Assembly (NCBI GenBank): GCA_016178625.1
Contig: JACOSX010000140.1
Span: forward strand, 2,804-66,803
Length of the DNA: 64,000 nucleotides
Origin: Ignavibacteria bacterium
Lineage (GTDB): Bacteria > Bacteroidota > Ignavibacteria > UBA10030 > SZUA-254
Direction of reading: 5' to 3'
The notes under the pieces were generated by a model. It saw nothing but the letters and a program-made list of their open reading frames with translations. It was not told where the DNA came from and searched no databases. Of the stretch, positions 10,918 to 44,396 are shown piece by piece. The position numbers and the translations under genes were made by a program. The stretch's first letter is position 1; each line of letters begins with the position of its first letter.

Positions 10918-11088
10918 CGATCTTGTGATCCCCCCTAGCGTGAACTCCTCAGACCGTTTGGAAAGTTCATTTGAGATGTTTCCGATGATATCTCACTTCC
11001 CAATTAAGGATATCCTCGTCCACAAAACGAGGGAAAACATTTCGTTTCCCCACGGGTAGACGAAAAAACTGTTGTCGACGAACTGCTG

Positions 11089-26490: not shown

Positions 26491-28653
26491 ATGAAAAAGT
26501 CTTTTTTCCTTCTCATGTTTATGCTTATAGCAGCAGGTGCACTTTGGTCCCAGGTCCAGAAAGATACTATTCGGTATCAGTTGCAGCCAGTCACAATTAC
26601 TGCAACACGTGTCTCTGAAGGATGGCTTGAGGTTCCTCTTGCAATTAATGTCCTTGAACACAACGATATTCAACATACCAAAGGGTACGGCTTGGATGAA
26701 ATACTATCTGGTGTGCCGGGTGTGCTCGCTCAATCACGGTACGGAAACCAAGATATCCGGCTTACCATTCGTGGATTTGGTGCCCGGGGCGCAGGAGCCA
26801 AGTCGAATGCAGGAACGTCGCGGGGCATTCGCGTGCTGATAGATGGTTTTCCTGAAACCGAGCCTGATGGAAGAACATCATTTGATCTCATTGATCTCTC
26901 GGGAGCAGGTAGTGTCGAAGTTGTTCGGTCGAACGCCTCATCGGTATGGGGAAATGCGTCGGGGGGCGTGGTGAATATTCTCTCGAACACAACGTTCACT
27001 GCACCTTATTCACATCTACAATCAATGTTCGGCAGTTTTGGATTTCACAAAGAGATGCTGCATGGCGGCGCGATGCTTGGTCAAGGACGGTTCTTCTTCT
27101 CGGCGAGCAACACAACGTATGATGGTTGGCGCGACCATTCGGCAAGTTCACAAATTCTGGTGAACACCGGAGTCATCTCTCCCTTGGCTGAGAAAACATC
27201 CTTGGGTGTTTATTTGACCGGTACAAGCAACCTCTTCCGGATTCCTGGACCTCTGTCTCAAGGACAATTCGATTCCAATCCTCAACAAGCTCAGAATCTG
27301 AAAGATTCGGTGACAGGTGTGAACTATACCCTGGTCGCCCGGGATGAGCGGAGGTTCAATCGCCTTGGGCGTCTGGGGGTGAACCTCATGCACGATATTG
27401 ATCCAAAGAACAGTTTCTCCGCGTCTGCATTTGTTAGTCCAAAATATTTGCAGCGATCAGAACGAAATAGGTTTCGTGATTTCAATCGTTATCACGTCGG
27501 AGGAAACTTCACGTACAGCAATAGGGCGTCCTTCAGTCCTGAGGTGTCGAATACATTGTTAGTAGGAGTCGATGAGGCGTATCAGGATGGGGCAATACAT
27601 TTTTATAATCTTACCAGTGCAGGTGATCGGGGAACAATCCTCGCGGCGAACAAGCGAGAAGGTGCAAATAACTTTGGCACTTTTCTCGAAGATGAAATCA
27701 TGTTAAGTGATCGGGTCAGTATTCTTGCCGGTGTACGGTATGATAATATTACTTATTATTATGACGATTATATAACGCCAAGCCTGAACGATCGAAAATC
27801 CTTCGAGCATCTTACACCCAAAGCCGGTTTCACATACAAGTTATCGCCAACGCATAGCGTATATGCGAACATAGGTGGAGGGGTGGAGGTTCCAGCGGGA
27901 AACGAGGTAGACCCCTCTCCAACCTTTGGTCAGGATACAGTGAGAGCCATCAACCCTTTACTCGATCCAATCACGTCAACGACGCTCGAACTCGGAACGA
28001 AGCAAGTTCTTTCACTTGGAGGGGACGAAAGGGTCGGTGCAATACTCTACGACATTGCTCTCTACTGGATTGAAGTGAGCAATGATATCATTCCATACGA
28101 TGATGGCAGTTTCTATTTCACCGCTGGAAAAACCCGCCGGATGGGCGCTGAAATAGGCGGCCGACTCCAATTTGAGAACGGCTTTTCTGTTGAAGGTACT
28201 CTTACGACCTCAGATAACAAGTACATCACATACCAGATTGATTCAGTGCATTATGGCGTTGCAGGAAAGTTTCGTGATCTTAAGGATAATTTAATGTCTG
28301 GGGTTCCAAGTTTCTTTTTTGATGCCGGCGTACGTTACTCACCGCTCGGGATGGAAGGTGTATATGCCAAAGTGAACCTTCGGGGTGCTGGCAAGTATTT
28401 TGCCGACGACGGCAACCAATTCGAGGTGCCGGCATATTCCGTGTTGAATGCTTCGATCGGTATTGATCATCTTCCCATAGAAAACACTGGGTTCACGTTA
28501 ACGGGATTTATTGGAGCCAATAATCTTGCTGACAAGAAATATGCGGCTGCGGCTTGGATCAACCCGCAGCTAATATATGGGAAACCTGTGTTTCTCGAGC
28601 CAGGGTTACCTCGCAACTTTGTTGGATCATTCTCTGTCCAGTATGACTTCTAA
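26491..28653 (+). CDS. TonB-dependent outer-membrane receptor
   Basis: Signal peptide. Plug domain ('DEILSGVPGV..IRG'). Long beta-barrel ending in a C-terminal aromatic ('SVQYDF'). Confidence 0.85.
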   Translation: MKKSFFLLMFMLIAAGALWSQVQKDTIRYQLQPVTITATRVSEGWLEVPLAINVLEHNDIQHTKGYGLDEILSGVPGVLAQSRYGNQDIRLTIRGFGARGAGAKSNAGTSRGIRVLIDGFPETEPDGRTSFDLIDLSGAGSVEVVRSNASSVWGNASGGVVNILSNTTFTAPYSHLQSMFGSFGFHKEMLHGGAMLGQGRFFFSASNTTYDGWRDHSASSQILVNTGVISPLAEKTSLGVYLTGTSNLFRIPGPLSQGQFDSNPQQAQNLKDSVTGVNYTLVARDERRFNRLGRLGVNLMHDIDPKNSFSASAFVSPKYLQRSERNRFRDFNRYHVGGNFTYSNRASFSPEVSNTLLVGVDEAYQDGAIHFYNLTSAGDRGTILAANKREGANNFGTFLEDEIMLSDRVSILAGVRYDNITYYYDDYITPSLNDRKSFEHLTPKAGFTYKLSPTHSVYANIGGGVEVPAGNEVDPSPTFGQDTVRAINPLLDPITSTTLELGTKQVLSLGGDERVGAILYDIALYWIEVSNDIIPYDDGSFYFTAGKTRRMGAEIGGRLQFENGFSVEGTLTTSDNKYITYQIDSVHYGVAGKFRDLKDNLMSGVPSFFFDAGVRYSPLGMEGVYAKVNLRGAGKYFADDGNQFEVPAYSVLNASIGIDHLPIENTGFTLTGFIGANNLADKKYAAAAWINPQLIYGKPVFLEPGLPRNFVGSFSVQYDF

Positions 28654-29106: not shown

Positions 29107-30336
29107 ATGGCAAAACCAAGGCTCGTTATCCTCGGAACAGGCTTTGCTGCGTTTAGTGTCATCAAGGATATAGACGAGGAGTTGTATGAAGTTATCGTTG
29201 TCAGCCCCCGCAATCATTTTCTCTTCACGCCACTCCTTCCGAGTACGACCGTTGGCACTATAGAGTTCCGCAGTATCATTGAACCGATCCGCGTCGCCAA
29301 GAGGGGAATTGAATATCATCAAGCAGTGTGTACAAACATTGACCCAACGCACCGTCTGATTCAATGCAGGCAAGTGCTTGATGGTATTTCCTTCACGCTC
29401 CAGTTCGATCTGTTAGTCATTGCTGTAGGCGCAACGAGCAACACGTACAACATTCCCGGAGTTAAGGAACACTCGTTGTTGTTGAGAGAGCTTTCAGATG
29501 CTCGGGCCATTCGACAACGTATCATCGACTGCTTCGAACGCGCGAGCACACCCGGGCTCGGTAGCTCTGAGCGAAAGCGTTTGCTCCATTTTGTTGTAGT
29601 AGGTGGCGGACCGACAGGTGTAGAATTTGCGGCCGAGCTGCACGATTTCCTGATGGAAGATCTTCGCTCTTCATATTCTCACCTCGTGGATGACGCGCAG
29701 GTCACCGTGCTTGAAGCGACCGATCATATCCTTGGTACATTTGATCAGACATTAAGCGAATATGCGACGCAGCACTTCTGCCGACAGAAGATTGAAGTGT
29801 GTGCACGATCGACGGTCATTAGGGTTGAGCCGACACAAGTTATCCTCAAGGATGGTACTGTTGTACCTTTTGGTCTCCTTGTCTGGTCGACAGGGATCGG
29901 ACCATCTTCACTGGTAGAGGCATTGCCGATTGCCAAGTGGAACGATTCGAGAATCATTGTTGATCAGTTTCTGCGCGTCCAGGGATCAATGATAGTATAC
30001 GCACTCGGAGACTGTGCGACAATCGAGGGGAACAACCTTCCTCCAACCGCTCAGGTTGCCCGACGGGAAGGAAAATACTTAGCACGAGCGTTCAACAGGT
30101 TAGCGGAGAAGAAATCGATTGAGCCATTCCAATATAAAGATCTTGGTATGCTTGCATACATCGGTGGGGGAAAGGCGCTTGCCGATCTGAACAATCTCAA
30201 GGGGCGAGGATATTTTGCATTCATCTTTTGGCGGTCGGTGTATCTTACCAAACTCGTGAGCCCCAAGACCAAGATGCTTGTCTTGTTCGACTGGATCAAG
30301 ACCCGAATCTTCGGCAGAGATATCAGTCGATTCTAA
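29107..30336 (+). CDS. ndh: Type II NADH:quinone oxidoreductase (NDH-2), FAD-dependent
   Basis: 'RLVILGTGFAAFSV' Rossmann GxGxxA. Second dinucleotide fold 'HFVVVGGGPTGVEFA'. About 400 aa with a C-terminal membrane-anchoring region. Confidence 0.85.
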   Translation: MAKPRLVILGTGFAAFSVIKDIDEELYEVIVVSPRNHFLFTPLLPSTTVGTIEFRSIIEPIRVAKRGIEYHQAVCTNIDPTHRLIQCRQVLDGISFTLQFDLLVIAVGATSNTYNIPGVKEHSLLLRELSDARAIRQRIIDCFERASTPGLGSSERKRLLHFVVVGGGPTGVEFAAELHDFLMEDLRSSYSHLVDDAQVTVLEATDHILGTFDQTLSEYATQHFCRQKIEVCARSTVIRVEPTQVILKDGTVVPFGLLVWSTGIGPSSLVEALPIAKWNDSRIIVDQFLRVQGSMIVYALGDCATIEGNNLPPTAQVARREGKYLARAFNRLAEKKSIEPFQYKDLGMLAYIGGGKALADLNNLKGRGYFAFIFWRSVYLTKLVSPKTKMLVLFDWIKTRIFGRDISRF

Positions 30337-30390: not shown

Positions 30391-31104
30391 ATGTCGGAAG
30401 AGTTAATAATTGAAGGCAAAAATGGCATCCATAACATGAAAAGAACGACCATGAAAACCTCGCTCAGTGACCGCATCCGAGCTGCTCGGGAGAATAAAGA
30501 AATTGACCAGAGTAGCCTTTCAAGAAAAGTTGATGTCGCTGTCCGCACGCTCCAACGATGGGAAAAAGGAATGCAAGTTCCTGATAGTGATTACTTGCTG
30601 CGGCTTGCCAAATATACTGGTGTCCGCCCTGAATGGTTATTAACTGGCGAGGGAGAAATGTATCCTTCTCCGGCGCCCGTGGGAAAAATAATTCCTTTTC
30701 ATAAGGAATCATCATTGCGAAAAGTCTCTCTCATCGACATTCCTGTTCTCTCCTCTGTTCCAGCGGGAAAAACCGCAGCAATCTTTCATCCCGAACATGT
30801 CGAACGATATATCACGATCGACAACATTAAAGATCATGGTGCGTTTGCTCTCATTGTGAAGGGAAGGAGCATGTCACCGAGGATTGAAGATGGTGATATC
30901 GTTGTCGTCAGCCCACAACAAGAAGTACGTAACGGAGACATCTGCGTTGTCCGGGTGAACGATGAAGACGTGTTGAAGAAAATCAAAATGGATGAGAATT
31001 ACGTTCATCTTATTCCACTGAACACAACATTTGAGCCTGTCACAGTTCGGAAGCGAGATGTGGCTTTTATTTGGAAGGTCATCAGGGTAATCAAAAACCT
31101 TTAA
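30391..31104 (+). CDS. XRE-family HTH + S24 peptidase (LexA/CI-like autocleaving repressor)
   Basis: HTH_3-like 'SSLSRKVDVAVRTLQRWEKG'. An Ala-Gly site ('VPAGK'). S24 catalytic Ser 'GRSMSP' and Lys 'VLKKIK'. Confidence 0.7.
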   Translation: MSEELIIEGKNGIHNMKRTTMKTSLSDRIRAARENKEIDQSSLSRKVDVAVRTLQRWEKGMQVPDSDYLLRLAKYTGVRPEWLLTGEGEMYPSPAPVGKIIPFHKESSLRKVSLIDIPVLSSVPAGKTAAIFHPEHVERYITIDNIKDHGAFALIVKGRSMSPRIEDGDIVVVSPQQEVRNGDICVVRVNDEDVLKKIKMDENYVHLIPLNTTFEPVTVRKRDVAFIWKVIRVIKNL

Positions 31105-34084: not shown

Positions 34085-35140
34085 TTAAAACATCTCCATC
34101 TGACCTTTCGGTTCTCTCCGAAAATGGCTGGTATCAAATTCAAACTTCTCGTTGTTCAATCCAACCTTTTCGCAACTCAGCTTGAAGAGTTGTTTGATCG
34201 AGTTCGCAATCTCGCCTTCACCTCCCATACGTTTACCCCACTGTGAATCGCTTAACTTCCCGCTACGGACGTCTCTGATTCTGTTAAGGACTTTCCCAGC
34301 TCTCTCGGGTAATGTTCGTTGAATCCAATCTAGGAAGAGTGGTTCTACTGATCCTGGCAGTCGAAGCATAGTGTAGCCCGCCCACGTTGCGCCACGCGAT
34401 GCCGCTTCCTTCAGGATCATAGGCATTTCTTCGTCGGTTAGCCCCGGAATAATCGGTGCTACATTCACGCACACTGGAATCCCATGGCTCGAAAGGATTT
34501 CAATCGTCTCCAGCCGTTTATAGGGAGCTGATGTTCGGGGTTCCATCATTCGAATCAGTTCTTTATTGAAACTGGTGATCGAAATGATAACAAAGACAAG
34601 ATCACGTGCGGCGAGATCTTTGAGAATATCGAGGTCTCGAACAATGAGTGCATTCTTGGTGATAAGTCCGACGGGGTTACGGTACTTAAGAAAAACTTCC
34701 AGACACCGACGGGTAAGTTGTACCTTACGCTCAACCGGTTGATAGCAATCGGTGTTACCGGAGAAGCACACCATTTGCGGTTGCCACGTCTTTTTCCGGA
34801 ACTCCTTCTCCAGAAGTGCAGGCGCGTCATGCTTCACGATGATTTTCGTCTCGAAGTCGATGCCGGCGGAGAAGCCGAGATATTCGTGACTTGGTCGCGC
34901 GTAGCAGTAGATACAGCCATGTTCGCAGCCGCGGTAGGGATTGATGCTATAGGTGAAGGGAATATCCGGGCTGTCGTTTTTTGCCAGAATGGTTTTGGAG
35001 GTATCTTTATAGAATACGGTTTGAACCGGACGGTCCTCGTCGTTCTCATCCCACTCAATCTCGAGTGGTTCGAGATGAAGCTGTTCGAATCGGTTGGGCG
35101 GGTTGAAGGCAGCGCCGCGGCCTTTGAGAGATGCCGACAT
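34085..35140 (-). CDS. Radical SAM protein, PA0069/SplB-like (DNA-photolyase-like) family
   Basis: 'YRGCEHGCIYCYA' CxxxCxxC radical SAM cluster motif. 351 aa. Matches the COG1533-like arrangement. Confidence 0.8.
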   Translation of the reverse strand: MSASLKGRGAAFNPPNRFEQLHLEPLEIEWDENDEDRPVQTVFYKDTSKTILAKNDSPDIPFTYSINPYRGCEHGCIYCYARPSHEYLGFSAGIDFETKIIVKHDAPALLEKEFRKKTWQPQMVCFSGNTDCYQPVERKVQLTRRCLEVFLKYRNPVGLITKNALIVRDLDILKDLAARDLVFVIISITSFNKELIRMMEPRTSAPYKRLETIEILSSHGIPVCVNVAPIIPGLTDEEMPMILKEAASRGATWAGYTMLRLPGSVEPLFLDWIQRTLPERAGKVLNRIRDVRSGKLSDSQWGKRMGGEGEIANSIKQLFKLSCEKVGLNNEKFEFDTSHFRREPKGQMEMF

Positions 35141-35148
35141 GAGAGGCC

Positions 35149-35469
35149 TTACGTGATGATCGGAAATATGATATAGCGTAACAATACGTGAGCAACAACT
35201 TCGACAACAAGTGCGATCACAAATGCGTCAGGGAAGAACTGAATATTCGTATATTTCGAGCAGAGGTACGTTGCAAGGCCAATAACAACGATTGGTGCAG
35301 GAATGAACAAGAATGGGATGAGCGAGACGAGCACTCCGCTCCCGGCTATGACGATACAACTCAAGAGTGTTGCGGGAATTACTCTCCAACGGAAAACGCC
35401 GTAGTACATTGTAGTTTTCATAACAAGGGGAACGATCGCTGAGAGGATGTAGCTTAGAACTATAGACAT
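35149..35469 (-). CDS. Small 3-TM membrane protein (hypothetical)
   Basis: 106 aa, three hydrophobic helices. Sits 8 nt upstream of the radical SAM gene on the same strand. Confidence 0.4.
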   Translation of the reverse strand: MSIVLSYILSAIVPLVMKTTMYYGVFRWRVIPATLLSCIVIAGSGVLVSLIPFLFIPAPIVVIGLATYLCSKYTNIQFFPDAFVIALVVEVVAHVLLRYIIFPIIT

Positions 35470-35472
35470 GAC

Positions 35473-36213
35473 TTATTTCAATAAGATTAGCTTCTTCGTC
35501 TCCGAGAAGATGTCCGCTTGCCCGCTTTCTTGTTGGCGGGTGGAAAGCCGATAATAATACACTCCACTGGCAACCTTGTCTGCGTTCCATTGCCGTGTAT
35601 ATGTGCCGGGATAGAGTTGTTCCGATACCACTGTGACGATTTCCTCTCCGAGGAGGTTGAAGACTTTGAGCGACACAAACCCGGAAGCTGGAACCTCGAA
35701 CCTAATTGTCGTGACCGGGTTGAACGGGTTCGGGTAGTTTTGGGAGAGTAGATAGGTAGCTGGTGCAACGTTCTCTTCTCGAATGCCGAGCGGCATCGGC
35801 GGGCCTAGTTGAGCGATGTCGTAAGCGGCTCGGGACAATTCAATTGTCCGGGAGCAAAAGCTCGCGTGAAGCGCGTCCGCGTAGTATTCTGCGTAGATCA
35901 GGTAACTAGAGTCTGCGACGAAAGGGTAGCCACAAGCAGCTTCATTGATGGCTGTGTAAATCGTGACTGGTGATGATGCGATTCCTTTCCAGTATCCGAA
36001 CACCTCCACCTGCAAGCGCAGTTCATGAGTAGCAGAATCGAGTCTGATCTCAATGATCTTTCCAAAAAAAACAGCACTGCTGTTTTGTAATTCCTGCAAC
36101 GGAGACCCTGGAAACTCGCAACTGCAGGCACTCGCGTTTGGATGTACGAGTACACTTACCAAACCGGACATAATCAAGAAAACAATCATCGGTTTCATAA
36201 CGTACCCCCACAT
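35473..36213 (-). CDS. TIMP-like (NTR/OB-fold, tissue-inhibitor-of-metalloproteinase-like) domain protein with T9SS C-terminal sorting domain
   Basis: Predicted signal cleavage leaves an N-terminal 'CSCEFPGS...'. Cys spacing C1/C3/C64/C96 matches the TIMP C1-C70 and C3-C99 disulfides. 'YTAINEAACGYPF' aligns with TIMP 'YTAPSSAVCGVSL', and 'SYLIYAEY' with 'EYLIAGKAE'. C-terminal 'NYPNPFNPVTTIRFEV...GVYYYRL' is a T9SS CTD. Confidence 0.6.
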   Translation of the reverse strand: MWGYVMKPMIVFLIMSGLVSVLVHPNASACSCEFPGSPLQELQNSSAVFFGKIIEIRLDSATHELRLQVEVFGYWKGIASSPVTIYTAINEAACGYPFVADSSYLIYAEYYADALHASFCSRTIELSRAAYDIAQLGPPMPLGIREENVAPATYLLSQNYPNPFNPVTTIRFEVPASGFVSLKVFNLLGEEIVTVVSEQLYPGTYTRQWNADKVASGVYYYRLSTRQQESGQADIFSETKKLILLK

Positions 36214-36247
36214 AAAAAGTGCGACGCACCTTTAAGGTGCGTCGCAC
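36214..36247 (-). terminator. Strong rho-independent terminator (12-bp perfect stem GTGCGACGCACC/GGTGCGTCGCAC, 5-nt loop, T5) ending the fur-FTR1-ApbE operon
   Basis: Perfect inverted repeat 36219-36230 / 36236-36247. On the minus strand it is followed by TTTTT (plus-strand A-run 36214-36218). Confidence 0.6.
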
Positions 36248-36255
36248 ATGGATAA

Positions 36256-36585
36256 TTACTCCACGCCTAACTTCTTCTTCGCCTCATCCGACATCATTGA
36301 GGGATTCCACTGCGGCTCCCAGACAATCCGGATGTCGCACTCGTGTACGCCGGGAATCTCGAGCACCCGTTCGCGTGCAAGATTGGAGATCGCGCCGCCC
36401 ATCCCGCAACCGGGAGTTGTAAGTGTCATCTTCACCCCGACCCAATCGTCGATGATCTTCACGTCGTATACCAATCCCAGATCCACAATGCTCACGGGGA
36501 TTTCGGGATCGTATACGTCTCGTAATGCTTGAAACACTTGGGCTTCGGTTACGTCTTGTTGTTCGGTGGGATTTTGGTTGTTCAT
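36256..36585 (-). CDS. DUF59 / MIP18-family protein (SufT/PaaD-like Fe-S assembly factor)
   Basis: 'VYDPEIPVSIVDLGLVYDV...TLTTPGCGMGG' is the DUF59 signature. ATG at 36585 with an AAAGGAA Shine-Dalgarno. The track ORF extends to 36654. Confidence 0.65.
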   Translation of the reverse strand: MNNQNPTEQQDVTEAQVFQALRDVYDPEIPVSIVDLGLVYDVKIIDDWVGVKMTLTTPGCGMGGAISNLARERVLEIPGVHECDIRIVWEPQWNPSMMSDEAKKKLGVE

Positions 36586-36698
36586 CGTGGTCGTTCCTTT
36601 CACAAGTAAGGTAAGATTTTTACGGACGGATTGCAAAACCAAAAGCCCGGGCATAATACTACGTTGTCTGGAGGCAGGACGGTGTCCTGTCCTACCGC

Positions 36699-37748
36699 TC
36701 AGATTTTTACGAGTTTCTCAGCATCTCCGTCTTGAACGATGGAGATGAATTGGATGTCCTTCGATTGCTGAAGGATCGATGCTGTTTTCTCCATACCGAG
36801 AACAAAAAATCCGGTTGAGAGCGCATCCGCTTGGATGGCTGTATCTGCGATGACTGTTCCGCTCAGAATAGTTCTGGCCGTTCTTCCACTTGATGGATCG
36901 AGGATGTGACCAATTGTTTGTCCGTTGGCTTGAATGAAATTCTCATAGTTGCCAGATGTTGAGAGTGCTTGATCTTTGATGTGAACCGTCGTGATGATCT
37001 TGTCAGTCTCTTGTGGATCGGTAATTCCGATCTCCCATCCTTCGGTATCAGGTGGTGTACCGATGGCGTACAGATCGCCACTGTGGTTAATGAGCGCGGA
37101 TTCAATACCATGTGACTTTACAATATGCGCCGCTTGATCAAGTGCATAGCCGACGGCGATTCCTCCAAAATCGAGTTTTGTCCGAGGGTGTTTGAGCGCC
37201 ACAACTGATGCGTAATCATTCGATACGATGTTGAGCATCCCGACTCCATCAAGAGTCTCGGCAATTTGTTTGTCAGAAGGGAAGTGATGCACTTGGGCAT
37301 CATCCCGGAAACCATAAAGCTCCATGAGCGGTTCGAGTGTTACGTCAAATGCACCTTCGGTCATCTCGTTGTACGTTCTCGCTCCACTAAGGACTTGGAT
37401 TATTCTCGAATCGACTTCAAGTTCATTTCTTCCCGAATGGTGATTGATCACCGACACTTGGCTTTTTGGATCGAAGACGCTCATGAGCTTATCAATCTCT
37501 TTCATCTCGCCGAACGCTTCTTCGATTGCCCGGTTGCATAATCGCTCATCATCACAATATGCTTTTATTGTAACAATACTTCCCATGGTGAACGCTGCTC
37601 GCTCAACGTATTTGGTTGGTGCGAGTACTTTTGCGATTCCGCTCAGTGGCCCGAGAGTAGTGCCGAGCATCAATGCCGATGAGAGTTGCATGAAGGACCG
37701 ACGCGAGAGAACCGGGTGTTCTTTCCCCTCAAGTACGACCCGCTTCAT
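36699..37748 (-). CDS. apbE: FAD:protein FMN transferase ApbE with Tat signal (periplasmic flavin transferase)
   Basis: 'SRRSFMQL' twin-arginine motif. 'LDFGGIAVGYALD' and 'GHILDPSSG' ApbE motifs. The start overlaps the upstream stop (ATGA 37745-37748). The track ORF extends to 37802. Confidence 0.8.
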   Translation of the reverse strand: MKRVVLEGKEHPVLSRRSFMQLSSALMLGTTLGPLSGIAKVLAPTKYVERAAFTMGSIVTIKAYCDDERLCNRAIEEAFGEMKEIDKLMSVFDPKSQVSVINHHSGRNELEVDSRIIQVLSGARTYNEMTEGAFDVTLEPLMELYGFRDDAQVHHFPSDKQIAETLDGVGMLNIVSNDYASVVALKHPRTKLDFGGIAVGYALDQAAHIVKSHGIESALINHSGDLYAIGTPPDTEGWEIGITDPQETDKIITTVHIKDQALSTSGNYENFIQANGQTIGHILDPSSGRTARTILSGTVIADTAIQADALSTGFFVLGMEKTASILQQSKDIQFISIVQDGDAEKLVKI

Positions 37749-38278
37749 CTTTGTACTCTCCAGAGCTCCCATAAGATGAGAGTGATCATGATGAGAAAAC
37801 ATCCGACCATTGTTACGCCGGAGATAATCACGAGCCAGCTGAACAATTCCGAAACGAAGCGCATCAGCCAGATTCCACCGAACGTCGTGGCGATAGCAAT
37901 GATTGGCTCGACCATCAGAAATTTTTTTACAGCATGACCGACTATCGAGGAAAAATAGAAAAGTCCTCCGACTGTGAAAAAGACAAGGGAAAGCGAAAGC
38001 ACATGATTATGAAGGAACATGTACATCTCATCGATACTCTTCGCATATTTGATCTCGGCTGTATTTTCGGGCGAGCCGCGATACTGTTCAGCGAGTCCGC
38101 GCGGCGTGCCGGATGTTGTATGATCGACAAACAAAAGTCCTATGGCATATCCCGAGGTGAGCAAGATCAGAAATGTAGTGATGAAAAGCCGAAGGGTTGA
38201 GTCGGCATTACATAGCCTCCAATGGGTCGTTACCCTTTCCGCATTTGTCTCGTTCATTGATTCAGGGGATGCGATCAT
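37745..38278 (-). CDS. 4-TM His-rich integral membrane protein (possible b-type cytochrome / EetA-like electron conduit)
   Basis: Four hydrophobic helices with His at helix ends ('VDHTTSG', 'FLHNHVL', 'VGHAVKK'). Tight overlaps with both neighbours. An alternative start is at 38257. Confidence 0.45.
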   Translation of the reverse strand: MIASPESMNETNAERVTTHWRLCNADSTLRLFITTFLILLTSGYAIGLLFVDHTTSGTPRGLAEQYRGSPENTAEIKYAKSIDEMYMFLHNHVLSLSLVFFTVGGLFYFSSIVGHAVKKFLMVEPIIAIATTFGGIWLMRFVSELFSWLVIISGVTMVGCFLIMITLILWELWRVQR

Positions 38279-38819
38279 GAGTGAGCTCGAAGGTGGTAAG
38301 AATCTTTCTCACTCCGTCGGTGATGGCGTGGACGGATATTGTCGCGCCGCTGATGTTCTTGATGTCCCTCCCCGGCTGGAGCTTGTCTAATGTTGTCTTT
38401 TGACGAAACTGTTTCCGAAACGATTCGTAGGCGATCTCGCCACCGTACGATTCACGGTAGGCAAGAACATCAATATCTTGCACGTTGCCAGTTGGCCTAA
38501 CACCAACCAAATAAGTAATAAGTTGGGTTTTACCTTTCACGTTATCGATAAACCCGTATCCCACAACCTCTTTCCCAATAATACAGCGATACACGGTGAT
38601 TGTATCGCCAGTCCAACGAGACCTGCTCCGGTCGAAAAGTTGTTGTTTCTCTTCCGATGTCAGTTTTACGGTTATGAGTGTGATAGAAGTCGAGTCACCG
38701 AACATTTTTTTTAGCGACGCAAATACTTTACCGTCAACACTGAGTTGAGAGCGAGACATCACCGTACAAATTACCATCAAGCAGAATGTGAGAGAAATAT
38801 CTTTCCAGCGCAAGAACAT
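38262..38819 (-). CDS. Secreted/lipoprotein FMN-binding-domain protein (FMN_bind; ApbE substrate)
   Basis: 'GYGFIDNVKGKTQLITYLVGV' and the C-terminal 'ISGATISVHAITDGV' fit the FMN_bind domain, whose [S/T]GAT[I/V]S Thr is the flavinylation site. The start overlaps the porin stop (TGATG). Confidence 0.7.
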   Translation of the reverse strand: MFLRWKDISLTFCLMVICTVMSRSQLSVDGKVFASLKKMFGDSTSITLITVKLTSEEKQQLFDRSRSRWTGDTITVYRCIIGKEVVGYGFIDNVKGKTQLITYLVGVRPTGNVQDIDVLAYRESYGGEIAYESFRKQFRQKTTLDKLQPGRDIKNISGATISVHAITDGVRKILTTFELTHDRIP

Positions 38820-39934
38820 CAGAAATTGTATCCAACGCCGATGTTCATTTGCTTTGTGTCTGCATTGGCGGCATTGTTAAAGAACTGATAATCGATCTTA
38901 AATGCGGTGTTATACGTCGGTTTGTAGGTCGCGCCGAAGGTGATTTCGTTTCGATCGTACACAGGGTTTGCGATGAAGCCGGTGACCTTTGATTGCGTGT
39001 TATATTTTTCATAACGGGTGAACAAAAGCAATGCTTGGTCAGATTCCGAGTACATCAACGGCAGGATATTGTAGGAGCCTTCCAGATAGAAACCATAAAT
39101 TTGGTCGGCGACATCGTTTCCATATGCTGTATTGATTTTTTGTGCATCACTAATTGATATGAAAGCGCCTACAGCGCGAAGAGAGAACTGGTCGTATGCG
39201 TATTGCGCATCACCCGAAAGGAGGGTGAGCATACTACTGCCGAGTGAATCGACACCTTCTGTGATATTGCCTGTGAAAAACGAGCCGCCGAGTTTTAATT
39301 CCGGGGTGGGGACGTACTCTAATCGACCGGTGAATGATGGATTCATGGGTGAGCTCTCAAGAGCTTCCTGTCTGCCCTCGCGGATGCCTTCCGATCCGCT
39401 GAAGTCCTCTGCCTTTAATCCTGCCATGACGTACAGTTGATACTTGACGCCTTCAGATAGCGTGCCGTAGATACCAGCACCGGATTCGCGCCACGTTGTG
39501 GGGATGACAATACGGTCTACATTTGGTCGCTCGACACCGTTAAATGTAGCTGGCTCATGAAATTGGTTAATGACGCCGATTGGCGGGAGGAGAATGCCCG
39601 CTTTCATGCCAATATTTTGATTGAAATGCCAGTCGAGATATGCCTGTTCGATGGCAACTTCTCCACCCTCGGCGCCGCCGCCTTCAGTGGCTTCAATTTT
39701 AGTGTGCTCGATTTCGACCTCTGACTTGAAGGATAAGTTCTCGTTAAAGGTGTGTGCAAGGTAGAGGACGAAGCGATGAAAATCGAGCGTGCCTCGAGTA
39801 GAGCCGTTAGGCTCATTATAGTGAAGCTCACCATAACCCCCGACGGTCGTTGATTCTTGAGCGTTGAGCCGGAGCGGTTTCAACTGAAAAGGTGTCAACA
39901 GAGCAATAGTAATAATAAAGTATTTTAGATGCAT
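38819..39934 (-). CDS. Outer-membrane beta-barrel porin (phosphate-selective porin O/P-like)
   Basis: AGGAG Shine-Dalgarno 13 nt before ATG 39934. Signal peptide. Alternating amphipathic beta strands ending in the C-terminal 'GVGYNF'. The track ORF extends to 39952. Confidence 0.6.
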   Translation of the reverse strand: MHLKYFIITIALLTPFQLKPLRLNAQESTTVGGYGELHYNEPNGSTRGTLDFHRFVLYLAHTFNENLSFKSEVEIEHTKIEATEGGGAEGGEVAIEQAYLDWHFNQNIGMKAGILLPPIGVINQFHEPATFNGVERPNVDRIVIPTTWRESGAGIYGTLSEGVKYQLYVMAGLKAEDFSGSEGIREGRQEALESSPMNPSFTGRLEYVPTPELKLGGSFFTGNITEGVDSLGSSMLTLLSGDAQYAYDQFSLRAVGAFISISDAQKINTAYGNDVADQIYGFYLEGSYNILPLMYSESDQALLLFTRYEKYNTQSKVTGFIANPVYDRNEITFGATYKPTYNTAFKIDYQFFNNAANADTKQMNIGVGYNF

Positions 39935-40026
39935 TTGTACGGTACTCCTCAAACAACATTAACATTTGGTGATTTAGCGGATTGTGACGACACACGTCTT
40001 AGAGGAGTAAGGGACCCAGCGGATTT

Positions 40027-40055
40027 CTTGACAACCAATTCTTTTCTGAGTATAA
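40027..40055 (+). promoter_or_regulatory. Perfect consensus sigma-70 promoter TTGACA-N17-TATAAT oriented antisense to the FTR1 gene
   Basis: TTGACA 40027-40032, 17-nt spacer, TATAAT 40050-40055. No plus-strand ORF follows. A ~100-nt ATG-free transcript would end near a T-run at 40134-40138 and run into the 3' end of 40160..41455. Confidence 0.3.
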
Positions 40056-40159
40056 TTAAATTGAAGAGAAAGGGGAAATAGACTATAAAAGTTTATTACT
40101 CTTTTCAAATTCGAGGTGCGGCACCATCACTCTTGCCGGAGCGGTGACACACTTTTTGT

Positions 40160-41455
40160 TTAGTGACCTTCTTCCGGTGTAATGTCGAAATACTTCCGCC
40201 GATGTTGCAGATCTGCTATCCTGATTTCAATCTTGCCATCTCTCATCCGCGAAGGTAAATAGATCGGTGCACATCCATTCCCTTCCATTGACCCACTATT
40301 ATTTTCATCGATCTGATCATCTTCAACAGCCTGATGGAGTTTGCTTAATGGTGAAGGCGCATCGCATTGTGAGCAAATCAGCTCACCGTTTTTCAGATAA
40401 TAACGACCGTAACTATAGCAGGCATAACATGCATCAAAGGCAGTGGCGAATTTTCCAAGGCTTATCCTGAGGACGAAGAACCGAATCTCGAGAGAGCTAT
40501 CTTGGATGGAATATCGGTGGAGATTACTATCACTCACTTTCTCAATCGGAATCTTGATCATGCCTGTAGATGGGACAAGAAGATGTTCTGATGAGAGATC
40601 CATCGCATGGTTCGATGAGAAGATGTCTCCAACCCCAAGAAAAAGAACGATCACCAAAGAGGCAAATACGGCACTGAGTTGCCATCTTCGCTGTCCTCTG
40701 GTTGACGGAGGCGTTTGTGGCGGCTTCCGTCCTGGGATCATCATCATTGATGCCGGAATGCTAACGATCGCGAGGATAAAAAGAAGATTGTTTTGGACGA
40801 TGGGACCGAGGATTCCCATCATCCTAGGATTCGAGGGGAACACGCCGAATTCGTAAAACTCATGTATTGCATTGACGATGAGTTGAATCGTGAAGATGAG
40901 AAGCGTAACTGCAGTTACCCTAAGAAATCTTCCGATGTCAACCTTAACGCTTCCCTGGATGAAGAGCACTGCAAACAATGTTGCAACCAAGAGCCCGATC
41001 ATAGTGCCGAGGAGGCTCCACCATGCCCCGGTACTAAATGCTACTGCGTGAAGAAAGATTGCTGTCTCTAAGCCTTCGCGGAAGATCATGAGGAATGTAA
41101 AGCTGAGAATGCTGAGGTGTGCTTTCCATGATCTTCTGGCGTCAAGGATGTTGTTTACCTTTTCTTCGATGTCTCTGCGGATTTTCTTTGCGGTCTTCCA
41201 CATCCAAACGATCATCGAGATTACGAAGAAGGCGGCGATCAACATAAAGTATCCTTCGAACATCTCTTGGTCGATTGTCAGTCGTTGGAGAATGATAGCA
41301 CCAATGACGCTTGCAAGTAATGCAAGCACAAGGCCGAGATATACAGACTTTATGAGAGAGATTTGTTGGATCTTTTGTAAATAGACGATCAGGATCCCAA
41401 GAACGAGAGCGATCTCAATTCCTTCCCGCAGAGCAATGATAAGTGATTCAATCAT
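40160..41455 (-). CDS. FTR1-family high-affinity Fe2+ permease fused to a C-terminal Cys-rich (DUF2318-like) domain
   Basis: Two RExxE motifs ('REGIE', 'REGLE') within seven N-terminal TM helices. One extra TM helix, then a ~150-aa domain carrying 'CYACYSYGRYY..CSQCDAP..GNGCAP'. Confidence 0.8.
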   Translation of the reverse strand: MIESLIIALREGIEIALVLGILIVYLQKIQQISLIKSVYLGLVLALLASVIGAIILQRLTIDQEMFEGYFMLIAAFFVISMIVWMWKTAKKIRRDIEEKVNNILDARRSWKAHLSILSFTFLMIFREGLETAIFLHAVAFSTGAWWSLLGTMIGLLVATLFAVLFIQGSVKVDIGRFLRVTAVTLLIFTIQLIVNAIHEFYEFGVFPSNPRMMGILGPIVQNNLLFILAIVSIPASMMMIPGRKPPQTPPSTRGQRRWQLSAVFASLVIVLFLGVGDIFSSNHAMDLSSEHLLVPSTGMIKIPIEKVSDSNLHRYSIQDSSLEIRFFVLRISLGKFATAFDACYACYSYGRYYLKNGELICSQCDAPSPLSKLHQAVEDDQIDENNSGSMEGNGCAPIYLPSRMRDGKIEIRIADLQHRRKYFDITPEEGH

Positions 41456-41491
41456 GAAATTATTCTTATTGGTGACCGCACAAACATGCGT

Positions 41492-41938
41492 CTATGATTT
41501 CTTTTTTGACTGACATTTCGAACAAACTCCGAAGATCTGAAGTGTGGAGTTCTGTATCTTAAATTTTTTTTCCTGGCAAACTTCCTGCTGAATCCTCTCG
41601 AGTTTATCATTCACAAATTCGATAATATCACCACATTCAAGGCAAATGAGGTGATCATGGCGGGGTCTACCGAAGGCTTTCTCATATCGGGATTGGCTCT
41701 CACCGAATCGGTATTTTGAAATGAGACCGCATTCGGCAAGAAGATCGAGCGTGTTGTACACGGTCGCACGCGACGCCTTGAGCCCCTTTGATATAAGCGA
41801 GGCATGGAGAGTGTCCGCGTCGAAATGCCCATTCGTTTTCATAATCTCTTCCAACAAAAGGAAACGCTCACGAGTGGGACGAAGCTTCTTCTCTTTCAGG
41901 TAGTCGGTGAGAGTATTTTTTGCTGCGCTAATATCCAC
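41492..41938 (-). CDS. fur: Fur-family ferric uptake transcriptional regulator
   Basis: Winged HTH, 'HDHLICLECGDIIEF' and the C-terminal 'CSKC' metal sites. 148 aa. First gene of the minus-strand operon. Confidence 0.85.
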   Translation of the reverse strand: MDISAAKNTLTDYLKEKKLRPTRERFLLLEEIMKTNGHFDADTLHASLISKGLKASRATVYNTLDLLAECGLISKYRFGESQSRYEKAFGRPRHDHLICLECGDIIEFVNDKLERIQQEVCQEKKFKIQNSTLQIFGVCSKCQSKKKS

Positions 41939-41940
41939 GG

Positions 41941-41966
41941 GGATAATTGTTTAGACTTGGTCTAAA
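41941..41966. promoter_or_regulatory. GATAAT hexamer followed by 17-bp palindrome TTTAGAC-TTG-GTCTAAA (candidate Fur/operator site) in fur-SDR divergent region
   Basis: GGATAATTG at 41941-41949. Perfect 7-bp inverted arms at 41950-41956 / 41960-41966. AT-rich NATWAT-like hexamers continue to 42010. Confidence 0.3.
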
Positions 41967-42084
41967 TATAAATAAATTATTCGTTCCAGTCAAGAATAAT
42001 TTTATTATTTTATGGCAAATTGGATGTCGGTTTGTTCAGCGATGCTGGTGGTTTTTTCCTTTACTTTCAATCAATGGAGTACAT

Positions 42085-42843
42085 ATGATTGATCTGAGTA
42101 ATCAAGTAGCACTTGTCACCGGTGGATCTCGAGGCATCGGTGCTGCGACAGCTATTCTCCTTGCTTCTGCAGGTGGCGATGTGGCAATTACCTATGATCG
42201 AAACGCAAAGTCAGCCAGAGAAGTGTTGAATGAAATTAAAGATCAGGGGCAGAGGAATCTTGCTTTGAGAGTCAGAGTAGAAAGGCCATCTGAATGCAAT
42301 AAAACTGCCCTCAGAGTCCTTAAGAGGCTGGGAAGGATTGATATTCTCGTTAACTGCGCTGGCATTTGGGAATATGGAGGCTTAGAAAATTTGGCAGTTG
42401 GGGATTGGAGGAAAACGATTGATATTAATCTGACAGGCACATTCAATATGTGTCGTGCGGTCCTTCCTATTATGAAAAAACAGAAATATGGAAGAATAAT
42501 TAATGTTTCCAGTACGGCGGGACAAAGGGGTGAGCCATACCATTCTCACTATGCAGCTTCAAAAGGAGGGATTATTGCCTTCACGAAATCGATCGCGCTT
42601 GAACTGATCAAGAGTGGCATCTGGGTAAACTGTGTTTCACCTGGGTGGGTTGATACAGATATGGTTTCTAAGGTCTTAAGGAATCCTAAAGAAAGAAAAC
42701 TGATAACGCAAGCCATTCCGCGTGGCAGAGTCGCCACCCCAGAAGAAATTGCTGGTCCCATTGTTTTCTTGGCATCCCGGCTTTCCGACCATATTGTTGG
42801 CGGGATTCTCAATGTGAACGGCGGGAGCGTCCTCTGTGGTTAA
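42085..42843 (+). CDS. SDR-family oxidoreductase (3-oxoacyl-ACP reductase FabG-like)
   Basis: GGAG Shine-Dalgarno. 'VALVTGGSRGIGAA' TGxxxGxG motif. 'YAASKGG' catalytic YxxxK. The track ORF begins at 41947. Confidence 0.85.
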   Translation: MIDLSNQVALVTGGSRGIGAATAILLASAGGDVAITYDRNAKSAREVLNEIKDQGQRNLALRVRVERPSECNKTALRVLKRLGRIDILVNCAGIWEYGGLENLAVGDWRKTIDINLTGTFNMCRAVLPIMKKQKYGRIINVSSTAGQRGEPYHSHYAASKGGIIAFTKSIALELIKSGIWVNCVSPGWVDTDMVSKVLRNPKERKLITQAIPRGRVATPEEIAGPIVFLASRLSDHIVGGILNVNGGSVLCG

Positions 42844-42993
42844 TAAAAGTGTTGAAATTTAGTTATTATAGCCATTTCTTTCCAACTCCTTCAAAATATT
42901 TCATTTTCCTCAGATTTTGCTTGCTTAATTATTCAAATTTTCTATATTTGAGCGAGATTAATATTACGCTATTCTTCTCTTTCTTAGTTTTAA

Positions 42994-44115
42994 ATGAAGC
43001 ACGATAAGCATAAGTTTCTCAAGGGGAAGCAGATAATTCCAAAACCGATCCCGAAAAATATTTCGGTGAATCAGCTTGTTGATGAGTATTTCCAAGCATA
43101 TAACTCGGGGAGGCTTAGAGAAGCTGCCCACTTGCTGACTGAGAAAATGCTTTCTGCTGATTCCACTATTGGAATGAGCCTTACCGGAGCTCTCACCCCC
43201 GCCGGGTTAGGCGGTGCATGCATTGTTCCACTGATTAAGTCAGGATTCGTAGATTGGATTGTCAGCACCGGCGCAAATCTTTATCACGACACTCATTTTG
43301 CGATTGGACATTCGCTTCACCGAGGGACTCCTTTCACTGACGACAGACTCCTAAGGAAAGAAGGCATTATCCGCATTTATGACATTGTCTTCGATTATGA
43401 GGTTTTGTTGTCAACTGATGCCTTTTTTCGAAAGCTGTTGAGACTTCACGAATTTCAAAATGAAATGGGTACAGCCGAACTTCATTACCGGTTAGGAAAA
43501 TACATTGCTGAGCGAGAAAAAATCCTTGGAATAAAGAATAGTAGTGTCCTTGCTACCGCCTACAGGTGTGGTGTACCGATATATACATCGTCGCCGGGTG
43601 ATAGCTCAATCGGGATGAACATTGCAGAGGTTGCCCTGGCTGGATACAAAATAAAACTCGACGTATTATTAGACGTAAATGAAACAGCTGCAATTGTGCT
43701 TGATACCAAGCGTAAGGGTGGAAAGAGCGGCGTATTTATCTTGGGGGGCGGTTCACCCAAGAATTTTGTATTGCAAACCGAGCCGCAGATACAAGAGGTC
43801 TTAGGGATTGACGAGAAAGGACACGACTATTACTTGCAGATAACTGACGCTCGTCCCGATACAGGCGGACTCTCCGGAGCGACGCCAGCTGAAGCGGTTA
43901 CGTGGGGAAAGGTGGATCCGGATAAGTTACCCGATGCTGTCGTTGCCTATCTCGATTCTACGATAGCATTGCCTATACTCACCTCCTATGCCCTGGCAAA
44001 GGTCAAACCCCGACCATTGAAGCGTTTGTATGACCGACGAGAGAGCATGCTCGGAGGTTTGTATAGAGAGTACACAAGGATTAAACAACGGAAGAAGGTT
44101 AAGGCAAACGAATAA
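42994..44115 (+). CDS. Deoxyhypusine synthase-like protein (bacterial DHS/homospermidine-synthase-like family)
   Basis: '[16 protein letters not shown]' and 'GGGSPKNF' match DHS-family motifs. 373 aa. Confidence 0.7.
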
Positions 44116-44195: not shown

Positions 44196-44396
44196 ATGAG
44201 CAGGTTCACAGAATTACGCGACTTGTTAAGCAGCTTCGAGAAGGACTTCATCAAGTTCTATGAGAAAGGCAATAAGTCGGCGGGGACGCGAGTACGGAAG
44301 GAGATGAATGAGCTGAAGAAGAAAGCACAGGAGATCCGCAAGGAAATCCAGGAGATCAAGCAGAAAGCGAAGGAGGCTGAAGGCGGAAGTATGTAG
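44196..44396 (+). CDS. Histone H1-like small basic nucleoid protein
   Basis: GGAGGG Shine-Dalgarno. 66 aa, Lys/Glu-rich 'FEKDFIKFYEKGNKSAGTRVRKEMNELKKKAQEIRKEIQEIKQKAKE', typical of Bacteroidota histone-H1-like proteins. Confidence 0.6.
   Translation: MSRFTELRDLLSSFEKDFIKFYEKGNKSAGTRVRKEMNELKKKAQEIRKEIQEIKQKAKEAEGGSM

Follow-up and report, generated by a model that had tools for sequence, protein, structure and literature searches.

A Fur-headed operon of an uncultured Ignavibacteria lineage joins a porin, a putative flavin-based reductase module and an exchangeable iron importer: a candidate system for assimilatory iron uptake

A contig of a metagenome-assembled genome (MAG) from an uncultured lineage of the Ignavibacteria contains a seven-gene operon in which a Fur-family regulator and an iron permease are joined to a porin, an FMN_bind protein and a small inner-membrane protein. 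The whole 64-kb stretch of DNA that was analysed is referred to here as the window. The delivery of ferrous iron to Feo and FTR1 importers in diderm bacteria is poorly understood for mostly ferric settings, and the outer-membrane channels and periplasmic reductases involved have rarely been defined. The operon and its relatives present a compact, linked candidate for the whole route, consisting of porin, flavin reductase, membrane partner, importer and cytosolic acceptor. It is probably a new variant of the known bacterial route in which iron is reduced and then imported. We favour, as moderately probable, the reading that this is an autoregulated, Fur-repressed, envelope-spanning operon for assimilatory iron uptake.

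Genes and operator of the operon

The open reading frame (ORF) list of the window contains seven co-directional ORFs on the minus strand within positions 36214-41966, where an earlier note on this DNA had placed them (Table 1). Families were assigned by Pfam and NCBIfam profile searches of the ORFs, with the label of the protein of four transmembrane (TM) helices, here the 4-TM protein, taken from precomputed annotation. The order is fur, the FTR1-FtrD fusion, porin, FMN_bind, 4-TM, apbE with its twin-arginine (Tat) signal, DUF59 and terminator. The ORFs, the profiles and direct reading of the sequence bear out the operon described in the note, including its translational overlaps: the start of apbE lies on the stop codon of the 4-TM gene in an ATGA at 37745-37748, and a TGATG overlap is present at 38817-38821. 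The terminator is also there, with a stem of 13 rather than the claimed 12 bp.

Table 1. Features of the iron operon in the window
Feature	Position	Strand	Size	Basis and remarks
Fur-box-type palindromic operator	41949-41967	strandless (.)		ATTTAGA-N5-TCTAAA half-sites
Candidate promoter TTGACT-17-TATATT	41965-41993	-		Consensus scan 10/12; consensus match only
fur	41492-41938	-	148 aa	GTG start; PF01475 7e-31
FTR1 permease with C-terminal FtrD-like Cys-rich domain	40160-41455	-	431 aa	PF03239 4.9e-32; PF10080 3.8e-17
Predicted outer-membrane 16-strand porin	38819-39952	-	377-aa ORF	AlphaFold2 model and Foldseek
FMN_bind (RnfG/NqrC-like)	38262-38819	-	185 aa	PF04205 1.1e-9
4-TM inner-membrane protein Aq_1264_TM	37745-38278	-	177 aa	PF27139 label
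ApbE FAD:protein FMN transferase	36699-37748	-		PF02424 2.7e-77; twin-arginine signal
DUF59 / FeS_assembly_P, SufT-like	36256-36654	-	132 aa	PF01883 8.3e-19
Intrinsic terminator	36219-36247	-		13-bp stem, 9 G-C pairs, 3-nt loop, TTTTT tail

Scanning a single genome for each species gave 25 related loci, all from Ignavibacteria or Bacteroidota MAGs, and further contigs were reached through individual proteins. The proteins of the window, together with FeoA and FeoB, were mapped onto all of these loci by tblastn. The gap between fur and the transporter gene is 36 nt in the window and 9-18 nt, or an overlap, in other loci. These short gaps make it likely that fur through the transporter gene is a single transcription unit, of which fur is the leading gene in 19 loci. 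In locus L001 the porin gene follows only 3 nt after the transporter gene. The two are separated by 208 nt in the window, which could leave room for an internal promoter.

The operator upstream of fur was found by de novo alignment of 130 nt of upstream DNA from 17 loci. A conserved block of TTGAC-N17-TAT(A/T)TT is followed directly by ATTTAGAC-NAA-NTCTAAAT, and the remaining intergenic DNA has diverged; the TTGAC -35-like and TAT(A/T)TT elements recur in the related loci. In the window the palindrome is TTTAGACCAAGTCTAAA at 41950-41966, reading ATTTAGACCAAGTCTAAAC on the minus strand, and it adjoins the -10 of the TTGACT-17-TATATT site. The operator is at the matching position upstream of fur in 17 of the 17 related loci and occurs once in each, as it does in the window. 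A GATAAT element had earlier been proposed along with this palindrome; the palindrome stands and the GATAAT is not conserved in the related loci.

What kind of operator is this? The Fur box of Riemerella anatipestifer has been predicted as ATTTAGAATTATTCTAAAT, and promoter fragments carrying the box bound Fur in an electrophoretic mobility shift assay (PMC5609570). The operator half-sites, ATTTAGA and TCTAAAT, are identical to the half-sites of this box. This identity points to the kind of Fur box that has been reported from Bacteroidota, positioned for autorepression, and the operon would then be iron-responsive. The top NCBIfam matches of the Fur-family protein are Fur models, with one PerR model scoring slightly weaker. 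The Escherichia coli-type Fur box GATAATGATAATCATTATC was also tried and was rejected, as its matches ahead of the fur and porin genes across all loci, at 9-12 of 19 positions and once at 14 of 19, are attributable to chance in AT-rich DNA.

Exchange of the iron transporter

The conserved order across the related loci is Fur, an inner-membrane iron transporter, porin, FMN_bind, Aq_1264_TM, ApbE in about half, and usually DUF59. A transporter is visible in 21 loci: FTR1-FtrD occupies the slot in 5, including the window, and FeoA/FeoB in the other 16. The chromosomal slot is the same in both cases: it is bordered at one end by deoxyhypusine-synthase-like and short-chain dehydrogenase/reductase (SDR) genes and at the opposite end by genes for radical-SAM and YchF proteins. 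In a neighbour-joining tree of the concatenated porin, FMN_bind and 4-TM proteins, the FTR1-type loci form one derived clade within a Feo-type backbone. This nesting indicates that FeoAB is the ancestral partner and that it was replaced in place, once, by FTR1-FtrD. The earlier note had paired the flavin module with FTR1; the pairing with a ferrous iron importer holds, and FTR1 is not what defines it. Since Feo imports Fe2+, the output of the module must suit ferrous import.

A further exchange is seen in locus L039. Here Fur, the same operator and FTR1-FtrD are kept and a TonB-dependent receptor takes the place of the porin and the flavin module. Directly after the receptor gene, at 10679-10975 of that locus, is a 98-aa ORF that aligns solely to the C-terminal quarter of ApbE (residues 251-347), and it looks like a deletion scar left by the replacement of the porin and flavin module. 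The exchanges in the slot, whether they involve Feo, FTR1-FtrD or a TonB-dependent receptor, are all within iron acquisition, and these natural exchanges point to the function of the operon. TonB-dependent receptor genes are found beside or inside the iron operon in L001 and L039.

In the FTR1-FtrD fusion of the window, PF03239 covers residues 2-203 and PF10080 (FtrD-like, formerly DUF2318) residues 307-423. Fusions of this kind are common in Ignavibacteria and Bacteroidota, and a sequence search for solved structures returned none for FTR1-FtrD. The separate DUF2318 protein of Campylobacter jejuni has been proposed to face the periplasm (PMC6083913). A like placement of the FtrD-like Cys domain is suggested here by hydropathy, with seven TM helices, a K/R-rich loop and then an eighth TM helix. 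Both RExxE motifs, REGIE and REGLE, are visible in the translation, and the permease matches the EfeU model NF041756 at 5.5e-41, which is under the cut-off of that model.

FTR1-family permeases are classically coupled to ferroxidation, not reduction. Ferroxidation is established for yeast Fet3/Ftr1, and the same model is held for FtrABCD of Brucella and Bordetella. Could the operon instead be an oxidase-permease of the Fet3-Ftr1, EfeUOB or FtrABCD kind, in which Fe2+ admitted by the porin is oxidised at FTR1-FtrD and the electrons run opposite to the favoured direction, from the Cys domain by way of the flavoprotein and then the 4-TM protein into the quinone pool? The fusion of a periplasmic Cys-rich FtrD-like domain to the permease would suit such a scheme, and Meheust et al. 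state that electron flow in flavinylated systems is reversible in principle (PMC8238504). However, the module is ancestrally and mostly paired with FeoAB, an importer of Fe2+ that has no FtrD-like domain. Additionally, profile searches of the seven genes and the scanned flanking genes gave no match to the P19, cupredoxin, EfeO or EfeB families, as the earlier note had stated for the operon, and the related loci are likewise without them. We regard the oxidase-permease as decidedly improbable.

The reductive uptake of iron that we favour has its nearest FTR1-containing parallel in the FTR1-P19 cluster of C. jejuni (genes 1649-1656) and in Gram-positive variants, where FMN-binding proteins substitute for thioredoxins in FTR1/P19/DUF2318 clusters (PMC6083913). 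Common to these and the operon are FTR1, a periplasm-facing DUF2318/FtrD-like Cys domain, a periplasmic redox protein of the thioredoxin or FMN-binding kind and an upstream Fur box. Unlike the C. jejuni cluster, the operon has no P19 and, by profile search of its seven ORFs, no ABC permease or ATPase gene, and its DUF2318 domain is fused to the permease. The porin and Aq_1264_TM are added here, and Feo replaces FTR1 in most of the sister loci.

The DUF59 protein appears to belong with the transporter. It is present in most related loci, its presence follows the transporter and not the flavin module, and in one locus without the flavin module it comes directly after FTR1-FtrD. TIGR03406 and TIGR02945 also match, under their cut-offs. 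The protein has no signal peptide, and an alternative start at M24 would shorten it to 109 aa.

Porin, flavoprotein and membrane partner

The porin of the window has no Pfam match above threshold; its homologues, of which there are at least 3,400, give weak matches to PF07396, PF07642 and PF13505. The ORF begins with TTG at 39952, but translation probably starts at the ATG at 39934, in keeping with the NCBI call of 371 aa. AlphaFold2, given 29 database homologues, yields a 16-strand beta-barrel (predicted local distance difference test, pLDDT, 83) in which loop 3, at residues 122-155, is long and conserved. Foldseek comparison of this model with the PDB gave OprP (2o4v) as the top match, followed by OmpC, Omp-Pst2 and OprO, with E of about 1e-12 and TM-scores of about 0.6. 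A profile search by sequence for solved structures found none. The invariant residues include four His and also E78, E80 and E82, spaced at every second position along strand 3. Most of the conserved charged residues are acidic or are His, which suggests a cation-selective lumen, provided that these residues face it.

Two kinds of known porin invite comparison. The OprO/OprP (PF07396) porins share the 16-strand barrel and long loop 3 with the window porin. PF07396 matches are weak and are seen in homologues only, and the mostly acidic or His conserved charges would, if they face the lumen, stand in place of the Arg/Lys anion-selectivity ladder of OprO/OprP. The second is psp of Geobacter metallireducens and Desulfuromonas, a PF07396-like porin preceded by a Fur box that was proposed in 2004 to serve Fe2+ entry, with homologues reported in Aquifex and uncultured bacteria (PMC545781). 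Both are weakly PF07396-like outer-membrane proteins with predicted Fur control and a proposed part in Fe2+ entry, a likeness drawn from the description of psp. The passages of that account that were consulted mention no flavoprotein or 4-TM partner (PMC545781). Aquifex, one source of psp homologues, is also the source of the protein that gave PF27139 its name.

ApbE biochemistry is established for NqrC, RnfG and PplA. The FMN_bind protein of the operon matches RnfG-type NCBIfam models, all far under the family cut-offs, and aligns with RnfG (7zc6_G) across the flavinylation motif. RnfG and NqrC are its best sequence relatives, with the flavinylated Thr aligned; the operon differs from Rnf and Nqr in having no RnfA-E or NqrA-F genes. 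Flavinylation is predicted at T160, within SGATIS, and 31 of 31 orthologues retain the motif [ST]GAT[ILM]S. The FMN_bind protein is predicted to be periplasmic from the hydrophobic signal or anchor at its N-terminus, and ApbE has a twin-arginine motif, SRRSFMQ, after the ATG at 37748. By analogy with NqrC, RnfG and PplA, T160 would carry covalent flavin mononucleotide (FMN). The earlier note had Fe2+ pass the porin after reduction. That sequence of events conflicts with the topology: as the flavoprotein is placed in the periplasm, iron must instead cross the porin before it is reduced.

The membrane partner is the least familiar of the components. The 4-TM ORF, which has no match in the local Pfam copy, is labelled PF27139, Aq_1264_TM, in the protein database, and a hypothetical protein from an Ignavibacteria MAG has the identical sequence (100%). 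When 1.84 billion representative proteins were searched with a profile, 457 PF27139 clusters (50% identity, E <= 1e-3) came back, and no solved relative was found. The AlphaFold2 model (pLDDT 81) has four TM helices, and its first loop includes a short helix. With the N-terminus inside, as the positive-inside rule predicts, this 44-residue loop would be periplasmic. Close relatives share many invariant positions, including H53, H90, N91 and H92. Across 47 diverse members of PF27139, H90 and H92 alone are invariant, forming an HxH at the predicted periplasmic start of TM2. In TM3, E124-P125 is invariant in close relatives and at least 70% conserved in the wider family. With 5 His in 177 residues the protein is not His-rich, contrary to the earlier note, and the conserved feature is the HxH. 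It may bind one haem or metal, perhaps between the subunits of a dimer, the arrangement proposed for FezC, or else quinol. The protein matches none of the catalogued flavinylation membrane-partner Pfam families, nor does it have their central four-His haem pattern.

The 4-TM gene adjoins FMN_bind in every locus with visible flanks. Eight distant members of PF27139 were looked up for their gene neighbours. In L032, L033, L035 and L040 the FMN_bind gene is directly upstream of the 4-TM gene and a porin homologue is next, with ApbE also present in L033. In L037 the order is reversed, with FMN_bind directly downstream of 4-TM. A short contig, L038, has a porin homologue downstream of 4-TM, and the contig of L034 is too short for the neighbours to be judged. 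Porin, FMN_bind and Aq_1264_TM, or pairs of them, recur without the transporter in distant lineages. In the planctomycete-like L035, a FecR-like gene adjoins the porin gene, three genes from the 4-TM gene. The same locus has a gene at 7540-8532 (-) for a 330-aa NAD_binding_1 protein with a weak FAD_binding_1 match, convergent with and abutting the Aq_1264_TM gene. This protein could be a cytosolic NAD(P)H-linked electron donor to the module in that lineage.

Is the 4-TM protein an electron conduit or does it handle the metal itself? In the second case the flavoprotein would still be an iron reductase, drawing electrons from a complex encoded elsewhere, and Aq_1264_TM would be a channel, gate or chaperone for Fe2+, acting through its HxH and membrane Glu; it would pass Fe2+ to Feo or FTR1, or be the importer in the stand-alone trios. 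Both invariant His are on the periplasmic face, E124-P125 is conserved within TM3, the protein is without the four-His haem pattern of the PepSY, MsrQ and DUF4405 kind (PMC11334425), and the trios of L040, L032 and L033 have no inner-membrane iron transporter nearby. Yet every Ignavibacteria locus already has a dedicated Fe2+ importer, and all characterised FMN_bind proteins draw their electrons from an adjacent membrane partner (PMC8238504). The strict adjacency to FMN_bind, even where the order is reversed, and the translational coupling fit a redox complex. A metal-handling role is in our estimate unlikely.

If the 4-TM protein is the electron input, the favoured reading may be extended beyond these bacteria. 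Tentatively, and with rather less than even confidence, we suggest that porin, FMN_bind and Aq_1264_TM make up a self-contained, envelope-spanning redox module found across phyla and previously unrecognised. Its parts would be a cation-selective 'glutamate ladder' iron porin, the acidic counterpart of the OprP arginine ladder; a flavinylated ferric reductase; and PF27139 as a new transmembrane electron-input class, whose periplasm-facing HxH might form a haem or metal site at a dimer interface and oxidise quinol. Lineages would attach Feo or FTR1-FtrD to this module, or swap the module for a TonB-dependent receptor.

A proposed route for iron, and neighbouring features

The gene identities, synteny, transporter exchange, motif conservation and Fur-box match are directly supported, and from them we infer a route in which each biochemical step, the electron donor and the selectivity of the porin are put forward conditionally. 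When iron is scarce, the Fur-family repressor would leave the Fur box abutting the -10 element, and fur through DUF59 would be transcribed. The 16-strand porin would admit Fe2+ or small Fe(III) species to the periplasm. Tat-exported ApbE would attach FMN covalently to T160 of the FMN_bind protein. Aq_1264_TM, which is translationally coupled, would anchor the flavoprotein and feed it electrons, most likely from menaquinol, at the HxH site, which may bind haem b or a metal, possibly at a dimer interface. Both quinol as the electron source and the role given here to the 4-TM protein are purely conjectural. The reduced flavin would turn Fe(III) into Fe(II), or hold periplasmic iron in the ferrous state. 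Fe(II) would then be imported, by FTR1-FtrD in the window and by FeoAB in most sister genomes, and the cytosolic DUF59/SufT-like protein would hand the incoming iron to Fe-S assembly.

Flavin-based reduction of iron is also known from a respiratory setting. In the extracellular electron transfer (EET) locus of Listeria monocytogenes, as here, an ApbE (FmnB) flavinylates an extracytosolic FMN_bind protein able to reduce ferric iron. Might the operon therefore serve a dissimilatory, Listeria-type EET, with Fe(III) as terminal acceptor and not as nutrient? ApbE and a flavinylated FMN_bind protein are the core of that process (cited in PMC8238504), and the window has an NDH-2 gene (Pyr_redox_2 and NDH2_C) at 29107-30336 (+). 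The gene is real, but it lies about 6 kb past the 3' end of the operon on the opposite strand, not 7 kb upstream as had been noted, and it adjoins the operon in only one other locus, L009. It was rejected as a part of the system, being not syntenic with it, and reflects general chromosomal synteny. In contrast to the Listeria locus, there is no linked Ndh2 here, EetA/EetB, DmkA/DmkB and FmnA are not among the seven genes as judged by families, and no quinone-biosynthesis gene is present. The flavoprotein is predicted to be periplasmic, behind an outer membrane, with no multihaem or multi-flavin wire present. The operon is headed by Fur, has a Fur box and always includes an iron importer. This diderm periplasmic setting, together with Fur and the importers, argues for an assimilatory rather than a respiratory role, and we consider the EET reading very improbable indeed.

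Some other periplasmic redox task might be co-regulated with iron import, such as guarding Fe2+ and its importer from oxidants, or the reduction of Mn or Cu. No equivalog assignment is reached for the Fur-family protein, with a PerR model close behind the Fur models, and in some lineages the trio is found in housekeeping contexts without iron genes. Against this, the half-sites of the operator are those of a Fur box, the module is partnered by Feo or FTR1, and FecR-like and TonB-receptor genes occur in variant loci. We find a task of this sort improbable.

Assimilatory iron reduction, the reading we prefer, has precedents. Flavinylation gene clusters co-localise with ferrous iron transporters and have been proposed as assimilatory iron reductases (PMC8238504). 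The operon has in common with these clusters (PMC8238504; PMC11334425) an exported ApbE, an FMN_bind protein with [S/T]GA[S/T], a small membrane partner, a ferrous transporter nearby and proposed Fe(III) reduction for uptake. The membrane partner here is PF27139, whereas theirs are NapH-, MsrQ-, PepSY-, DsbD- or NQR/RNF-like proteins or DUF4405 (PMC8238504; PMC11334425). The transporters are FeoAB or FTR1-FtrD here and VIT1 or P19-FTR1 there, and a dedicated outer-membrane porin is a core component here. The supplementary tables of Meheust et al. have no PF10080, PF02421, PF07396 or Ignavibacteria entries. In our search of the literature, neither this gene set nor the porin-FMN_bind-4-TM trio was found described, and no account was found in which PF27139 partners a flavoprotein. 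The earlier note did not recognise the gene combination as a named system, and no named system was found to match it. The link of flavinylation to FTR1 or ferrous transporters had already been published (PMC8238504; PMC6083913). The concept of flavinylation-based iron reduction is not new; the membrane partner and the porin are.

Several points weigh against the assimilatory reading. It stands wholly on comparative inference. The Fur-family protein is under every NCBIfam equivalog cut-off, with the PerR model nearly equal to the Fur models, so that iron specificity rests on context and operator. There is no further Fur-box match anywhere in the window, including between the transporter and porin genes, and comparison across related loci showed no conserved block in that gap. 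The ferroxidation to which FTR1 permeases are classically coupled runs counter to a reductive route. About half of the related loci have no ApbE gene, and the enzyme must be encoded elsewhere in these. The 4-TM protein has no recognised cofactor motif except HxH, and with both invariant His on the periplasmic side a classical two-haem transmembrane wire is excluded.

Despite these points, the central idea of the earlier note, an iron-regulated operon that combines an ApbE-flavinylated module with a ferrous importer, came through all of the computational checks named beforehand. The genes are together in all related loci, the Thr of the FMN_bind motif is invariant, the family of the 4-TM protein has no known unrelated role, and the operator has the half-sites of a Fur box reported from Bacteroidota. 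The reading gives the uncharacterised PF27139 a testable role and, if true, adds one more class of membrane partner to the ApbE-flavinylation systems. The system is so far confined to uncultured or poorly studied lineages and the concept has been published, which makes the advance incremental, not categorical.

Some minor features were noted within and around the operon. A perfect sigma-70 consensus, TTGACA-17-TATAAT (12/12), is at 40028-40056 (+) in the gap between the FTR1-FtrD and porin genes, facing antisense into the 3' end of FTR1-FtrD. It is the sole perfect match in the window, where 0.07 are expected, and was found in 0 of 40 related loci. A 9-bp G+C-rich hairpin with one bulge and no T-run is at 36660-36700 (-), between the stop of apbE and the start of DUF59; it may act in RNA processing or stability, or be due to chance. 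An Rfam scan of 35000-43000 gave a single match, at chance level (E = 0.89).

Past the terminator, at 35473-36213 (-), is a gene for a 246-aa secreted protein with a type IX secretion system C-terminal sorting domain (PF18962) and an N-terminal region without a family match. It was rejected as a member of the operon, given its place beyond the terminator and that only the sorting domain recurs, at varying positions and on varying strands. A TonB-dependent receptor (Plug and barrel) is encoded at 26491-28653 (+), with no Fur-box match upstream. At 30391-31104 (+) is the gene for a LexA/CI-like repressor (HTH_3 and Peptidase_S24), with a response regulator and a HisKA-domain protein encoded after it; these are unrelated to the iron operon. 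On the other side are the deoxyhypusine-synthase-like gene at 42994-44115 (+; PF01916 1.1e-70) and, at 44196-44396 (+), a 66-aa Lys-rich ORF where related loci have an Hc1 histone-like gene (PF07432). This pair, together with the SDR gene, flanks the iron operon in nearly all related loci.

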